In this document: positions 1-7,835 of the stretch, in pieces | Layout of the letters: each line of letters opens with the position of its first letter | How positions within the stretch are numbered: position 1 is the stretch's first letter | DNA from: Candidatus Jordarchaeales archaeon | GTDB lineage: Archaea; Asgardarchaeota; Jordiarchaeia; Jordiarchaeales; Freyrarchaeaceae | DNA: 32,000 nucleotides | Direction: 5' to 3' | Assembly: GCA_038889235.1 (NCBI GenBank) | Contig: JAWAHN010000001.1 | Coordinates: 914,499 to 946,498 of the forward strand | The notes under the pieces: model-generated | Seen by the model: the letters and a program-made list of their open reading frames with translations, nothing else | Told to the model about the DNA's origin: nothing | Database searches by the model: none | Made by a program: the position numbers and the translations under genes

Positions 1-1689
1 AGTTCCTATCAATAGCTCTCTTTCCTCGGGAACAATCATGTCCTTTCCATTCGGCCTTTTAACGTTATACAACGGGGCTAAACCGAGGCGTTTAATACGC
101 TTGACAACTTCGTACCTGTAAAGCAGACTAGGAACCGTTATCTCGTTTATTATCCTTCCAAAGTCCTCGAAGAATGCGTCTTCATCCTTCCCCATAGTCC
201 GCGCAGCCGAGGCGACAGGGTTCGGCGTGTCCATCTGTATGGCACCGTAGACGGCATTTCCAGTAATGTATTCCTCAACTTGCTCTGGTGTTTTGGCACC
301 CCAGGTGTGGGAGCAACATGAAACGCAGCCGCCGATGATTTTTTTCCTCCAGTTAAGGTAATTGACGAAGTATGGTAAACCGTACTTCGCAGCTAACCTA
401 GCGGCCCAAATGTAGGCTTCTTCAAATTCTGGTTTCATCCACTCTTCTCTAAGTTCGATGTTAAGCTTGGGATAGTTGAACGGTTTACCGTACCGGTCAC
501 CGTAATACATGACTTTCATGAATTCTACGAAGTAGGTTTTCACTTCGTCAACAAAGTCACCGTAAACGTATTTTTCGCTTGTCTTACCTCCTGGGAGAAT
601 TACCGGCTCGTTCATAAACTCTTTCTTTATGCCGGGTCCTATGTCTATTGATGTGAAGGGGACTTGGCCGCCTCTTGCAACATATTGTTGTGTGGCGATG
701 TATGGAGTGTGCTGGCAGGCTTGTTCAACTTCACGTTTTGCTACACGTTTCAAAACGTAGGCCACAATGGCTTCTATAATCTCTCTCGGAACTTGGCTAA
801 ACTTCTGATAAAGTTCATCAGTTAAGCCTAAAGCGGGTTGGTTCATTTCTGCAACAAATTGTGCGGCACTCTTTAATGCTTCCTCTTGCTTGAGTCCCCT
901 GAGGTACCAAGCTATACCTTCCATCCAATTGTGGAATCCTTGACCCCCAGACATGTTGCTTTGCCACGTCGCTAACCATATAGCTGCATGGTTAACAAAT
1001 ACTGCCAAGTGTTTTGGTGGACCAGCACTTGAAGAGTGCATTCCTCTTAAGCCGTCGGGCTCCAGTCCTTGAACAATGAACAGGCGGGGATCCCACGACG
1101 CACAGTAGTCTCTTATACTCGTGTACTCCCTGTCTTTATGGTAGTTATCGCCATTCAAGTGAGCATCTGCAATGTTAGTGTCAAACACTAATTTTTTCCC
1201 ACTAGGAACGGTTACTTCCAAGTGTCCTGGCAAAGTTAGGTATGTATGTTCGGTCATTACACGGTCATAAACGACTTTGGCAATAGTTTCAGGGTTTATT
1301 TGTAGGTTAGCGTTCCAAGTGTGCTGCAGCGGGTTAAGGATCATTTCGTTCAGGTCATAAATAGGTATACCTATCCTAGTGTAGCGTTTTCTGGCTTCTA
1401 TAAGACCCATTTCAGCCAGGACGGAGCAGCACATTTCCCGTATCATTGGGCCTGAAAGCCACTGAATGTTCGCTGAGATTATGCGCTTAACGACATTCTT
1501 AGCTACTTCAGAAGCAACCTCCCTGCTGACACCAGCCTCCTTAACGAGACTGTCAATTATTTTTCTAACGTCAAAAGGCTCTATCATTCCTCGGTTTGTT
1601 CTAACTGCAGGCATCAACGAGCTCCAGAAAGTTTCATCAGTTCTTTCTTCTTTCACATTCTCTTCACTATGATTGAGGGCGGGCTTCAC
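1..1689 (-). CDS. nrdD: Anaerobic (class III) ribonucleoside-triphosphate reductase with N-terminal ATP-cone; 3' end runs off the window
   Basis: Absent from the ORF track (no stop in the window); translated by hand. The frame is open from GTG 1689 (SD AGGTGA upstream; alternative ATG 1614) to base 1. It shows an ATP-cone (EPFDVRKIIDSLVKEAG...GPMIREMCCSVL) and the motifs ADAHLNGD, DYCASWDPR, SAGPPKH, QSNMSGGQG, ARGGQVPFTSI, GKPFNYPK, KYGLPYFVN and VSCCS. Confidence 0.9.
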   Translation of the reverse strand, partial: MKPALNHSEENVKEERTDETFWSSLMPAVRTNRGMIEPFDVRKIIDSLVKEAGVSREVASEVAKNVVKRIISANIQWLSGPMIREMCCSVLAEMGLIEARKRYTRIGIPIYDLNEMILNPLQHTWNANLQINPETIAKVVYDRVMTEHTYLTLPGHLEVTVPSGKKLVFDTNIADAHLNGDNYHKDREYTSIRDYCASWDPRLFIVQGLEPDGLRGMHSSSAGPPKHLAVFVNHAAIWLATWQSNMSGGQGFHNWMEGIAWYLRGLKQEEALKSAAQFVAEMNQPALGLTDELYQKFSQVPREIIEAIVAYVLKRVAKREVEQACQHTPYIATQQYVARGGQVPFTSIDIGPGIKKEFMNEPVILPGGKTSEKYVYGDFVDEVKTYFVEFMKVMYYGDRYGKPFNYPKLNIELREEWMKPEFEEAYIWAARLAAKYGLPYFVNYLNWRKKIIGGCVSCCSHTWGAKTPEQVEEYITGNAVYGAIQMDTPNPVASAARTMGKDEDAFFEDFGRIINEITVPSLLYRYEVVKRIKRLGLAPLYNVKRPNGKDMIVPEERELLIGT

Positions 1690-1694
1690 AAAAA

Positions 1695-1985
1695 TCACCT
1701 TTCCATTATATTCATCAACATATTCTTCAGCTCTTCATAAGACACAGGTTCCCCGAGAACCAGAGCTTTCATATCATCATCTCTAACAGCGACAATAGTT
1801 GGCGTGCTTACAACGTAAATTTGATTCTTGAGCAATTCGAATTCAAGCTCCTCCGAAAGTTCTTTAACATCTACTATCTCAAATGGGATCTTAAGCTCCT
1901 CACAGACCTTCTCAGCCGACTTTTTTGCTACAGGACAGTTCGGGCAGTTTTCTTGCGTAAAAACAATAAGCTTTCTTATCATTGC
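1695..1985 (-). CDS. Thioredoxin/glutaredoxin-fold redoxin (NrdH-like)
   Basis: LIVFTQENCPNCP CxxC motif and a STPTI cis-Pro motif. Likely start is ATG 1985 (ORF extends to 2021). Its stop overlaps the nrdD SD. Confidence 0.8.
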   Translation of the reverse strand, partial: AMIRKLIVFTQENCPNCPVAKKSAEKVCEELKIPFEIVDVKELSEELEFELLKNQIYVVSTPTIVAVRDDDMKALVLGEPVSYEELKNMLMNIMER

Positions 1986-3745: not shown

Positions 3746-4210
3746 TTATTCCTCAAACGAGGCGATCGCGCCTTCGGCTTCCTCGACGGAAACCTTGAGA
3801 CGTATATTGGTTGGTAAAACAGCTTTCAGTTCGTAGTAAAGGTACTCTGCTATTTTTTCGGCTGTTGTAGCTTCTACTGGCAGAAAGGCAACGTCACTTT
3901 TCGGGAAGACGTATTTTCGGTCGCTTAAAAAAACGTGAACTTCGTTCCCTTCCTCTTTAAGATTTAACCCCTTTGCTTTAATTGGAATTAGCACACGGTG
4001 ATCCAAGTGTTCACAAACAGACTTAACTGCATGTTTTACTGTGAAGAAGTCCACCACCATTTGGTTCTCGTCCAAAGAACTAGATGAAGCTTCCACGTGA
4101 ACCTTATAGTTGTGACCATGTAAACGAGAACATTTTTCGTGTGAAAGTAAAAAGTGAGCCGCTGAGAAGACTAAATCAGCTCTTTCAACAGCAACCCTAT
4201 ATGGCAACAT
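3746..4210 (-). CDS. queD: 6-carboxytetrahydropterin synthase (QueD/PTPS family)
   Basis: FSAAHFL, CSRLHGHNY, LDH, TAEKIA and VEE motifs. Confidence 0.9.
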   Translation of the reverse strand: MLPYRVAVERADLVFSAAHFLLSHEKCSRLHGHNYKVHVEASSSSLDENQMVVDFFTVKHAVKSVCEHLDHRVLIPIKAKGLNLKEEGNEVHVFLSDRKYVFPKSDVAFLPVEATTAEKIAEYLYYELKAVLPTNIRLKVSVEEAEGAIASFEE

Positions 4211-4228: not shown

Positions 4229-4858
4229 TTAGAAGGTTCTAGATTTTGCGATGTCTCCTTCTATGTCTAAAATTTCAGACCGATATTTTCTAGCGAGGGA
4301 GACCGCAAAGTCTTCAATCTCCTCTCTTCTAAAACCTAGGTCTAAGAGAGATGCTATCTTAATACCCGGAGGCCCACCTTTAGAAGATACATTAAAGGCA
4401 AAATGTATTTTTCCCGATGCGGGGGAAACTGTTGCTACACCTACATTAAGCTTACCATCATTGAAATAAAAGTCTGTACCCTTACGCTTCAAACGTAAAT
4501 TATGTGTTTCTTCAACAAGTTCTTTGAAGAGAAACGCAAGTATTCTCAAACGGTGGTACATGAGGCGCAGCGAGGGGGGCTGTTGGTCGAAGTGCTCAAT
4601 TATGAAGCTCACCGCTTCATCTGCACATATGACCGGGGTTCCTTTAGATCCTTCACGAAGGAAGTCCTTTACGTCCACGAGTTCTGAGGCTTCAACGTGA
4701 AGGGGGCCATTAAAGATAACTATTGAGTCACCTTGCAAGCCGAAGACTTTAAGAGACCATAGGGGCGCGATTTCTCTTCCGGTGTAGGGTAGCTTGTAAG
4801 TGAAGGGTAGGAGAGCTATCTTTAGGGGCTCTTTCTCGACTATCCTCAATTCTAACAT
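4229..4858 (-). CDS. DUF366-family protein (BPL/LplA-like fold)
   Basis: YTGREIAPLW, GDSIVIF, LVDVKD, FIIEHFD, RKGTDFY, KLNVGVAT and KIHFAFNV resemble DUF366. Confidence 0.75.
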   Translation of the reverse strand: MLELRIVEKEPLKIALLPFTYKLPYTGREIAPLWSLKVFGLQGDSIVIFNGPLHVEASELVDVKDFLREGSKGTPVICADEAVSFIIEHFDQQPPSLRLMYHRLRILAFLFKELVEETHNLRLKRKGTDFYFNDGKLNVGVATVSPASGKIHFAFNVSSKGGPPGIKIASLLDLGFRREEIEDFAVSLARKYRSEILDIEGDIAKSRTF

Positions 4859-4873
4859 GGGTAAACCCCACCA

Positions 4874-5727
4874 TTACAGTATGCCCAGCATTTTATGGAC
4901 TTGCAGTGATATCGAAACGTTTTCGCTTCCCAAGTAACGTGCAGCCAGCTCGGTAAATTTGCAAAGTTGTTGAAAGCTTGGAGGAAGGTAACCGTCCTTC
5001 GGAGTTACTGGTTGAATACACACTGGGCACTCTAATTTAGAAAGTTCACGTGAGTACCATTCAATGTTTTCCGTTTTGGTGTTTGAAGTAACTACTATTT
5101 TAGCGAAAACAGCCACCCCACTGTCTGAGAGAATTTTTATTGTTTTAAGCTCCAGTTCGACGAGCTCTTTCCAGTTTTTTGCAGCGTTAGCGGATTCATC
5201 TTTAATGTCGCAACAGCAGTAGTCTATTAGGCTGGCAATTCTAGCTGCAGCTTCAGGAATTGAGCCATTAGTTTCGAGATATAATTTGAAACCCGCATCC
5301 TTAATAGCTTCTGCGGTTGAACGCAGGAATTCTGGTTGGAATAACGGCTCCCCACCTGTCAGGGAAACGGCGTGGACATCTGGTGAGCGAAGATTACAAA
5401 CCCATTCGACTACGAAGCGTGAATCCACGGGGTTCTTGAAGTTGAAAACCTCACCCGTTGGTGTAACTACTCTCAAGTAGGTAGGGTTGGGCTGTACGGC
5501 GTGGGGGGTTTTGCGTTAGTTCATAAGTCGCACCACCCACACCCTTTACTTCCAAAGGCTCCGAGACCTATATTGCATCCTGAAAAACGGACAATTCGAC
5601 GGCATTAAAGCCTATATCGTCCGCCGCCCGTAATTTGAGCCCCTTACGCTTCCGCCTTCACCTTTACCCCTTCCCCGACTAGGAAGGATTGGTAGGAAGA
5701 GAATATCTCGTAGACCCACCCGCTCAT
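4874..5727 (-). CDS. queE: 7-carboxy-7-deazaguanine synthase QueE (radical SAM), 263 aa after removal of three BHB micro-introns. Exons: 5727-5689, 5662-5614, 5594-5527, 5509-4874
   Basis: The joined exons (39+49+68+636 = 792 nt) translate without stops: MSGWVYEIFSSYQ/GEGGSVRGSNYGRRTI/FVRFSGCNIGLGAFGSKGCGWCD/TPHAVQPNPTYLRVV...SLTGGEPLFQ...YLETNG...IQPV...QVHKMLGIL. The ORF track captured only exon 4, which lacks the Fe-S motif. Confidence 0.92.
5510..5526 (-). other. BHB intron 3 of queE (17 nt)
   Basis: GUGGGUGG-UGCG-AC|U-UAUGAACUAA-CGCA-AA|A-CCCCCCAC. Central helix UGCG/CGCA; the exon-exon stem pairs at 7 of 8 positions. Removal gives TGC GAC|ACC (WCD-T). Confidence 0.88.
5595..5613 (-). 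other. BHB intron 2 of queE (19 nt)
   Basis: CGAU-AU|A-GGC-UUUAAU-GCC-GUCG-AA|U. Central helix CGAU/GUCG (one G-U pair). Removal gives ATA T|TT GTC (I-F-V-R-F). Confidence 0.88.
5663..5688 (-). other. BHB intron 1 of queE (26 nt)
   Basis: UACC-AA|U-CCUUCC-UAGUCGG-GGAAGG-GGUA-AA|G. The 4-bp central helix UACC/GGUA has two 3-nt bulges and a 6-bp intron stem. Removal gives CAA|GGT (Q-GEG). Confidence 0.9.
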
Positions 5728-5829: not shown

Positions 5830-6282
5830 GTGCCAAGTGAGGTAAAAAGGGGGAAGTTGTTCGAATTGTCACTAATGAGACTTTTGATACCCAAAGTAGA
5901 AGTGAACGTTTGCAATGTGCGTTCAGTCGAACAATCGATAAGAAAGGCTGAAAGAGGTTTAGCAGGATACTTTGAAACGACAGCTGTGGTGTTAATGCAC
6001 AAGGAGGATATGAAAAAGATTGGTGTGAAGAGCGGAGACAAAGTTAAAGTTTCTTCGAATTACGGAGCGGTTATCGTCAAAGTGTATGAGACTGACGAAA
6101 CAAAGCCGGGATTAGTTTTGATGCCCAACGGCCCTTGGTTTAACACAATTAGCGGAGGAGACATACAGGTGACCTGGGGGGAACACTACTACTTAGTTAG
6201 GGCGACCGTGGAGGCGACGAGCAAGGAGGAAACGAAACTAGAGGACATAGAGAGAGATCTTTTCGGAGAGGGTGGAAAATGA
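5830..6282 (+). CDS. fwdD: Formylmethanofuran dehydrogenase subunit D
   Basis: Molybdopterin dinucleotide-binding-domain pattern: MHKEDMKKIGVKSGDKVKVSSNYG and MPNGPWFN. True start may be ATG 5875. Confidence 0.8.
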   Translation: MPSEVKRGKLFELSLMRLLIPKVEVNVCNVRSVEQSIRKAERGLAGYFETTAVVLMHKEDMKKIGVKSGDKVKVSSNYGAVIVKVYETDETKPGLVLMPNGPWFNTISGGDIQVTWGEHYYLVRATVEATSKEETKLEDIERDLFGEGGK

Positions 6283-7835
6283 CTGAGCTAATTTTAAAGA
6301 ATGGCATAGTGTTCGACCCAATTAATGGTGTTGAAGGAGAAAAAATGGATGTTATGGTCAAAAACGGCGTCATAGTGGAGCAAGTCAACGAAAGGGAGTG
6401 TAAAGTTTTAGATGTAAAGGGCATGACTGTGGTGCCAGGGGGTATAGATTGCAATGCGCATATAGCGTCTCAAATACTAAACATTGCGAGAATGACCGGA
6501 GTAAGAATGCCACTCCCGAGGGATCTTGGAGAAGATTATTTGAGGGCGGGTTATACATTCGTAGTTGAGGCGGGACTACCATTCTCAAAGGTTCTTCATG
6601 CACACATTGTATTGGAGAACGTGCATTCTCTGGACAAGGCATGCATCCTGCTTCTTGACTCAAACTGGTTTATGGCAGGATTCGCCGCGGAGGGAAACTA
6701 TGACGCGGCCGTGTCGGCTATAGCATGGCTACTAAGAGTAACTAGGACTTATGGGGTTGAGTTGGTCAACCCACTAAGCTTAGAGGTTTGGGCGTGGAAG
6801 AGAGAGTGGAAAGGTGCTATGGAAAAGGTAAAACACTTGGACATAAGCCCCTTGGAGTACACCAAGTTTGTTTCGTTAGCGCTTAAGAGACTTAACATTT
6901 CGAGTCCACTCTACCTGCACCCTGACGGCGCTGGACGCAAAGGGGGATGTGAAGACGCAATCGAAATATTAAACGGACTTAAAGAGTGTGGGAGAATACA
7001 TTTAACACATGCCCAGTTTTACACGCTTGGAAGTGACGGGGAACTACATGCCGAGAAACTTGCCAGGTACCTAGATTCCAATAGTGACCTAGATGCCGAT
7101 GTTGGATGTGCCACTGTTGGCGCTGGAACCTTTGCCGCCCATGATGCATACTTTACAAAAAACGTCTCCGAAAAGCTACACGTCTTGGAGCAAATAGAAG
7201 TTGAGGGCATCGCTACTTTAACGAAAACGAAGAGGGATCTGTGGGAAAAGTTTTGGGAAGCTGGTCTAATTCTTCTACTTGCTGTTAATAATCACTCAAA
7301 AATCCAGCTTTCAATGGATGTTCCTTTTTGCGGCTTACCACTAGACTATTCTTCAATAGCGGCATGGTTAGTAAGTAAAGCAGCAAGAAAATCCGTCAAT
7401 AGCACGGAGAGGATGCTTCAAATGGACGAGCTGAAACTTCAAGAATTGTTTACTATGACCAGAAGCGCGCCGGCATTGTCATTAGGGCTAGGCAAGAAGG
7501 GACGATTAACGGTGGGAGCTGATGCAGATATAGCAGTTTACGATTTTGATCCGGAGACCATGGATCCAAGCAGAGACTATGAGAGGTTTGCACGGGCTCT
7601 TTCAAGAGCCGCATACACCATAAAAGGAGGCGAAATCGTCGTTAAAAATGGAGAAATCGTGAATAAGGTTAAGGGGAGAACCTTCTGGGTTAACTGTAAA
7701 GTGGGAAAACCTCCAGAGGAAGTTCTCACTACTATGGAAAGGTACCTTTCATTCAATCCCAGACAGATGGAAGAAATAGGCAGGGTTTTGAGTGGAAGCT
7801 ATTGCAGCGTTGAGGGTGGTGTAAGCCATGTCTAA
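6279..7835 (+). CDS. fwdA: Formylmethanofuran dehydrogenase subunit A-like amidohydrolase (divergent active site)
   Basis: ILKNGIVFDPINGVEGEKMD, PGGID, GYT, VNP, HLTHAQF, GADADIAVYD and TIKGGEIVV motifs; fwd operon context. Confidence 0.8.
   Translation: MTELILKNGIVFDPINGVEGEKMDVMVKNGVIVEQVNERECKVLDVKGMTVVPGGIDCNAHIASQILNIARMTGVRMPLPRDLGEDYLRAGYTFVVEAGLPFSKVLHAHIVLENVHSLDKACILLLDSNWFMAGFAAEGNYDAAVSAIAWLLRVTRTYGVELVNPLSLEVWAWKREWKGAMEKVKHLDISPLEYTKFVSLALKRLNISSPLYLHPDGAGRKGGCEDAIEILNGLKECGRIHLTHAQFYTLGSDGELHAEKLARYLDSNSDLDADVGCATVGAGTFAAHDAYFTKNVSEKLHVLEQIEVEGIATLTKTKRDLWEKFWEAGLILLLAVNNHSKIQLSMDVPFCGLPLDYSSIAAWLVSKAARKSVNSTERMLQMDELKLQELFTMTRSAPALSLGLGKKGRLTVGADADIAVYDFDPETMDPSRDYERFARALSRAAYTIKGGEIVVKNGEIVNKVKGRTFWVNCKVGKPPEEVLTTMERYLSFNPRQMEEIGRVLSGSYCSVEGGVSHV

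Follow-up and report, generated by a model that had tools for sequence, protein, structure and literature searches.

The queE gene of a Candidatus Jordarchaeales archaeon raises the question of how a gene that cannot be read through from its own start codon can encode an enzyme. It lies in the window, the whole 32,000-nt stretch of DNA that was analyzed. QueE produces the 7-deazaguanine compound that serves as the precursor of tRNA archaeosine. From the ATG at 5727 on the reverse strand, the unspliced reading gave MSGWVYEIFSSYQSFLVGEGVKVKAEA and ended at a TAA (5646..5644) after 27 codons. Beyond MSGWVYEIFSSYQ, and up to this stop, it was no longer QueE-like. The first-pass annotation had attributed the break to three inserts of 26, 19, and 17 nt, none of them divisible by 3, and all of its sequence statements held. 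Removal of the three inserts gave a 792-nt ORF, 62 nt shorter in total, with the junctions CAA|GGT, ATAT|TTGTC, and GAC|ACC. Introns 2 and 3 had fixed boundaries that could not be slid, as had been claimed, and intron 1 could be slid by 1–2 nt with the mRNA unchanged. We propose that queE is very probably expressed as a pre-mRNA with three relaxed BHB/BHL micro-introns, which would most likely be removed by EndA and RtcB. The coordinates are collected in Table 1.

Table 1. Features of the queE locus in the window, and other introns found in the same genome.
Feature	Position	Strand	Description
queE pre-mRNA coding region	4874..5727	-	four exons and three introns; predicted spliced product, a 263-aa 7-carboxy-7-deazaguanine synthase
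Exon 1	5689..5727	-	13 codons, MSGWVYEIFSSYQ
Intron 1	5663..5688	-	26 nt
Exon 2	5614..5662	-	49 nt, GEGGSVRGSNYGRRTI + 1 nt
Intron 2	5595..5613	-	19 nt
Exon 3	5527..5594	-	68 nt, F-VRFSGCNIGLGAFGSKGCGWCD; contains all three Cys of the radical-SAM cluster motif
Intron 3	5510..5526	-	17 nt
Exon 4	4874..5509	-	211 codons + stop; sole part reported by gene callers
DUF366 gene	4229..4858	-	immediately downstream of queE
queD (6-carboxytetrahydropterin synthase)	3746..4210	-	pathway neighbor of queE
Two genes divergent from queE	5830-7835	+	a Molydop_binding-domain gene and an amidohydrolase-like gene; formylmethanofuran dehydrogenase D/A-like
cbf5 intron	L040:1482-1510 = G000:C1:835887-835915	+	29-nt BHB, CACU AG|a...GGUG aa|A; splits GHAGTL|DPKVTGVLPV
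pcm intron	L042:1965-1995 = G000:C1:804345-804315	-	31-nt BHB, 10-bp inner hairpin
Radical-SAM gene intron	G000:C1:964013-964040, about 17.5 kb past the window end	+	28-nt BHB, GCAC AA|a...GUGC aa|U, 9-bp hairpin
tRNA T-arm intron	G000:C3:441784-441765	-	20 nt, GGGUUCG AC|u...CGAG aa|U CCCGCC

The N-terminus of the spliced product reads MSGWVYEIFSSYQ|GEGGSVRGSNYGRRTI|FVRFSGCNIGLGAFGSKGCGWCD|TPHAV.... It was aligned with uninterrupted QueE proteins of Hydrothermarchaeales, Hel-, Heimdall-, and Promethearchaeota, and Methanocaldococcus, and the alignment ran without gaps over all three junctions. Identity to these proteins was 54–66% in exons 1–3 versus 33–47% in exon 4. The N-terminal motif E-I-F-x-S-x-Q-G-E-G and the three cluster cysteines were present in the spliced product only. 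Its closest uninterrupted homologues are annotated as QueE, and queD is located nearby. The junction-spanning tryptic peptides expected from spliced QueE are ...EIFSSYQGEGGSVR, TIFVR, and GCGWCDTPHAVQPNPTYLR.

The only long unspliced ORF at the locus was 5476..4874, with a TTG start and 200 aa. Gene callers give only this ORF, as would be expected if exon 4 or nothing were expressed and exons 1–3 were decaying remnants of a dead or truncated gene. Its match to radical-SAM/QueE models was confined to the C-terminal two thirds of the models. Exon 4 matched PF04055 with 31 bits and scored below the curated cut-off of every QueE model, which also fits a dead gene. However, exons 1–3 carry the three cysteines that a radical-SAM enzyme needs; because all three sit in exon 3, exon 4 alone would make no working enzyme. 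The first-pass annotation had named a separate intact queE as an outcome that would speak against splicing. No other queE was found in the genome, and QueD (encoded next to queE), QueC, and ArcTGT were intact.

The comparison with relatives bears on the same point. We collected 14 queE loci, from the window genome, four genomes of the same family, six genomes of a second family, and three further public contigs. Inserts were present at the identical three codon positions in all 14 loci of these two Jordarchaeales families. Their lengths ranged from 20 to 31 nt for intron 1, from 18 to 30 nt for intron 2, and from 15 to 30 nt for intron 3, independent of frame. After insert removal, the same conserved QueE N-terminus was restored in 14/14 loci, whereas queE genes from other Asgard families were uninterrupted (6/6). 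The occupancy of three sites in all 14 loci is far beyond chance. Because all 14 copies examined keep their inserts at the same codons, the queE mRNA almost certainly needs three splicing events. The ancestor shared by the two sampled families probably already had all three introns.

Between the families, differences in exons 1–3 were distributed over the codon positions of the spliced frame as 27.7 at third, 10.8 at first, and 8.5 at second positions, and synonymous codon changes outnumbered non-synonymous ones. This pattern indicates purifying selection on exons 1–3 in the spliced frame. Decaying remnants would not be expected to persist in all 14 loci through changes that are mostly synonymous or at third positions, and we consider a dead or truncated queE extremely unlikely.

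We then turn to the RNA structure of the proposed introns. When anchored on the junctions derived from the protein, each intron had the tRNA-like BHB layout of four exon nucleotides, a 3-nt bulge (two exon and one intron nucleotides), an intron hairpin, four complementary intron nucleotides, and finally two intron nucleotides and one exon nucleotide. In the window genome, all three introns had a central helix with 4/4 bp, in which the four exon nucleotides pair with the four intron nucleotides that precede the final two. The cut position in each intron was 2 nt 3' of this helix.

In intron 1, the central helix is UACC (5694..5691)/GGUA (5668..5665), with the bulges AA|U (5') and AA|G (3'). A 7-bp inner hairpin, CCUUCCU/GGGAAGG, stacks on it. 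The inner helix was 99% paired over the 14 loci, with compensatory double changes in 5/5 pairs. Its variants included CCUUCC/GGAAGG, CCUUA/UAAGG, UCCCU/AGGGA, and UCCCCC/GGGGGA. Controls in which the 3' partner was slid by 1–3 nt were 48–67% paired. RNAalifold, run on an independent MAFFT alignment, recovered both the central and the inner helices of intron 1 and reported five covarying pairs.

In intron 2, the central helix is CGAU (5619..5616)/GUCG (5600..5597), the bulges are AU|A (5') and AA|U (3'), and the inner helix is GGC/GCC. The intron sequence GUCGA(A/C) was invariant in the 14 loci. Covariation was seen as a C-G to A-U switch, and the second family had a hairpin of 8–10 bp with further compensations. 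In intron 3, the central helix is UGCG (5532..5529)/CGCA (5515..5512), with AA|A as the 3' bulge. In the window genome, the 5' cut (AC|U) falls within a loop of 10–13 nt. Because the inner helix there is just 1 bp, this 5' site is BHL-like. The inner helix of intron 3 had 4–5 bp in the second family, where it was strong and covarying, and was essentially absent in the first. An outer exon helix, GUGGGUGG/CCCCCCAC, was paired at 7/8 positions and showed a G-C to A-U switch among loci.

The central helices were conserved as UACC/GGUR in 14/14 loci for intron 1 and as CGAU/GUCG in 7/7 loci of the first family for intron 2. The second family has AGAU/GUCG at intron 2, a 3-bp helix with A/G as its first pair. 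For intron 3, UGCG/CGCN formed 4 bp in 11/14 loci. The first-pass annotation had expected an alignment of sister genomes to bear on its reading; the relatives indeed have inserts at these three sites, of other lengths, and with compensatory changes in the stems.

A register test was performed with the canonical rule, in which both strands are cut 2 nt 3' of a 4-bp helix and the inner helix is stacked. All 169 combinations of boundary offsets within ±6 nt were scored, and the scores of the 14 loci were added up. The optimum was at offset (0,0), the junctions derived from the protein alignment, in every one of the three introns. The earlier statement that protein and RNA criteria select the same cuts was thus borne out for 3/3 introns.

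The claim of BHB geometry was upheld in part. The 4-bp central helix and the cut rule were confirmed for all three introns, and introns 1 and 2 had 5' bulges closed on both sides. The exon–exon helix meant to close the 3' bulge was weak in register, with 1–3 bp, or had 6–8 bp when displaced by 2 nt (intron 2); it was weak or displaced in both introns 1 and 2. Because these exon-side helices are weak and intron 3 is BHL-like, the queE motifs are relaxed rather than textbook BHB. Single-sequence MFE folds did not recover the BHB register of introns 1 and 2, so we relied on the comparative data. RNAalifold and MFE folding also favored alternative registers in places in these two introns; in the alternatives given by the MFE folds, and by RNAalifold for intron 2, exon 1 pairs with exon 2.

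These deviations could mean that the RNA is truly excised by a machinery other than EndA and RtcB, such as an endonuclease that recognizes the conserved hairpin and the 3' AA. The weak exon-side closing helices and the non-BHB registers that RNAalifold proposed for intron 2 are in line with this, and so are the intron 3' ends, which were unusually uniform (..AA| in most copies, with intron 2 invariant at this end). However, the cut positions obeyed the BHB rule in 3/3 introns. An intron in the T-arm of a tRNA of this genome looks alike (UUCG AC|u...CGAG aa|U), and the encoded EndA belongs to the type known to cut relaxed motifs (PMC6379350, PMC5829648). Another excision machinery is therefore rated very unlikely.

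Translational recoding would leave the RNA unspliced, with the ribosome frameshifting or hopping past the three inserts. In some loci, a single-frameshift path exists for a given insert. In two loci, L004 (15 nt) and L009 (27 nt), intron 3 keeps the frame, has no stop, and could be translated as it is. On the other hand, intron 2 generates an in-frame UAG at its 5' junction, and the stops in introns 2 and 3 of the window genome leave no single-frameshift path. The introns of locus L013 are all multiples of 3, yet each contains in-frame stops, again leaving no path. Matched take-off and landing codons were absent, and three independent bypasses would be required within 180 nt. Recoding also does not sit well with insert lengths that drift freely while the stems covary and the BHB register fits, and if translated, the inserts would break the most conserved QueE motifs. 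We give recoding hardly any chance.

For excision by EndA and ligation by RtcB, the genome encodes the expected proteins. Two tRNA_int_endo paralogues were detected with 111 and 77 bits, and RtcB with 600 bits. The two EndA subunit genes lie at L033:1192-1782 (+) and L034:1474-2061 (-), and the RtcB gene lies in L035. The alpha-like EndA subunit was closest to the catalytic subunits of A. pernix and P. aerophilum (A. pernix match, E = 4e-47). It aligned ungapped through the Crenarchaea-specific loop, including its Lys, and the catalytic His was kept. The second paralogue (195 aa) had no His at the matching spot, as read by eye without an alignment. By these features, the predicted EndA architecture is (alpha-beta)2, a two-subunit enzyme with the broad-specificity loop. 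Published work describes EndA of this architecture as able to cut relaxed motifs and as the usual form in TACK and Asgard archaea (PMC6379350, PMC5829648, PMC2724299).

The proposed pathway would run as follows. queE would be transcribed as a pre-mRNA carrying three archaeal tRNA-type micro-introns. In each of them, four exon and four intron bases would form the central helix of a relaxed BHB, with the intron hairpin stacked on top. The two-subunit EndA would cut each strand two bases 3' of the central helix, and RtcB would ligate the exons. Only the triply spliced mRNA would encode full-length QueE with the QGEG motif and the three cluster cysteines. Excision by EndA and ligation by RtcB are deduced from sequence here, and the same-site inserts in 14/14 loci, the selection in the spliced frame, the covariation, and the encoded EndA and RtcB all favor the BHB splicing that the first-pass annotation put forward.

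A QueE of spliced length was sought in eight public protein clusters and was not found; all members were 109–251 aa. The spliced junction-3 pattern had no match in metagenome contigs, and the unspliced pattern matched only duplicates of known loci and chance sequences.

The public QueE calls of this clade were all wrong, with lengths of 188–251 aa. They start inside exon 4, begin with a wrong-frame MGGGRYRL..., or contain a spurious 'SKKRK'. The prediction that gene callers would truncate such genes was hence correct, and mis-framed calls occurred as well. The 15-nt intron 3 of L004 (genome G003) was called as the insertion 'SKKRK', and the 27-nt intron 3 of L009 as 'ILYNMLRRE'. Gene callers thus translate a stop-free intron whose length is divisible by 3, and such a hidden intron would leave no frameshift signal in the annotation. 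Asgard annotation pipelines and comparative proteomics need an intron-aware step.

Similar introns were found in other genes of the genome. A genome-wide scan for BHB motifs whose removal restores an ORF gave, for example, 138 matches versus about 112 in slid-register controls, and 58 versus about 41. The excess was about 20–35 matches. Such a scan, suggested earlier, did bring up clear true cases among its top matches, but the excess over the slid controls was modest. We do not give a genome-wide count as reliable, because chance matches at gene boundaries swamp the signal. The matches inside the window (e.g., 1704..1685) were ordinary gene boundaries.

One clear case is cbf5. A second break in cbf5, suspected from a split Pfam match, was rejected, as the frame was continuous after the single intron. 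In pcm, which encodes protein-L-isoaspartate methyltransferase, the intron falls exactly where the Pfam PCMT profile is split, at position 60. The intron of the radical-SAM gene is located just before the CxxxCxxC motif (...PSGT|IFFNMCTFRCVFCQNH). By the same sequence features, then, queE appears not to be special, since pcm, cbf5, and the radical-SAM gene are interrupted likewise. The first-pass annotation had taken queE as a second class of tRNA-modification gene under BHB splicing. This generalization is not supported; because the unrelated pcm and radical-SAM gene share the same kind of intron, the tRNA-modification link is probably a coincidence.

Although the genome is 95% complete, Aragorn recognized only 14 tRNA genes in it and called an intron in 10 of these; most tRNA genes are therefore probably too interrupted to be recognized. 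This result fits the 92–95% of interrupted tRNA genes in Freyarchaeia (PMC11291895), in which there are often several introns per gene at non-canonical sites (PMC11291895; bioRxiv 10.64898/2026.10.13.758758). The tRNA T-arm intron, also among the top matches of the scan, shares its bulge letters with queE intron 3 and is located about 2.5 kb from the gene of the second EndA paralogue (C3:444309-444566).

It seems likely that Jordarchaeales use tRNA-splicing enzymes across the lineage to splice many ordinary mRNAs, including those of multi-intron genes, with introns at least as old as the ancestor of the order. If so, close relatives of eukaryotes would have truly 'split' protein genes, and published proteomes would hold many truncated, mis-framed, or insert-bearing proteins.

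The closest known system is the BHB-type intron within the coding sequence of cbf5 pre-mRNA in Crenarchaeota (Watanabe 2002; Yoshinari 2006; Yokobori 2009, PMC2738675). As of Yokobori 2009, archaeal pre-mRNA splicing was confirmed in cbf5 only, and other genes were 'predicted' (PMC2738675). In textbooks and reviews, archaeal mRNA splicing has been treated as a one-gene, one-intron curiosity (PMC2738675, PMC6379350). Similar to the case of cbf5, queE has BHB introns in an archaeal coding sequence, the host gene is involved in RNA modification, and the EndA is a broad-specificity hetero-oligomer; removal has been shown for cbf5 and is predicted from sequence for queE. Differences are that crenarchaeal cbf5 has one intron and Jordarchaeales queE three within 180 nt, that the queE introns are much smaller (15–31 nt) than those of crenarchaeal cbf5, and that the lineage (Asgard) and the host gene are not the same. 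The window genome's own cbf5 also carries such an intron, of 29 nt. The introns in tRNA genes of Freyarchaeia/Atabeyarchaeia and Thermoproteales resemble the queE introns in their relaxed BHB shape and in the two-paralogue EndA. Those of Freyarchaeia/Atabeyarchaeia sit in tRNA, and protein-coding hosts are not mentioned in these reports (PMC11291895; bioRxiv 10.64898/2026.10.13.758758).

Splicing-endonuclease substrates reported in Haloferax volcanii (PMC7714728) and eukaryotic XBP1/HAC1 share with the queE proposal an RtcB-type ligation and a non-spliceosomal mRNA excision that alters translation. Unlike in XBP1/HAC1, the three queE introns look constitutive and interrupt the catalytic core. 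The XBP1/HAC1 mRNA is cut by IRE1 rather than by the tRNA endonuclease, and this event is regulatory. The mechanism proposed for queE is that of cbf5 and tRNA introns; what is new is how many introns one gene carries, their size, which gene hosts them, that the lineage is Asgard, and that they are conserved throughout the order. In the literature searched, neither a multi-intron archaeal protein gene nor introns in queE had been reported. On this reading, a metabolic gene for tRNA modification that would need three splicing events has been kept throughout an Asgard order with intron-packed tRNA genes, and the tRNA-splicing machinery could bear a multi-intron protein-coding load. queE would offer a concrete system for how such introns spread and persist, with a bearing on ideas of split genes near the origin of eukaryotes.

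The neighborhood of queE was also compared. The DUF366 gene was found between queE and queD in the related contigs L036 and L038 as well, and no gene was called there in L039. Its position between queE and queD suggests that DUF366 may have an uncharacterized role in 7-deazaguanine/archaeosine synthesis. On the other side of queE, the synteny of the divergent pair of Molydop_binding and amidohydrolase-like genes was kept in all related contigs examined.
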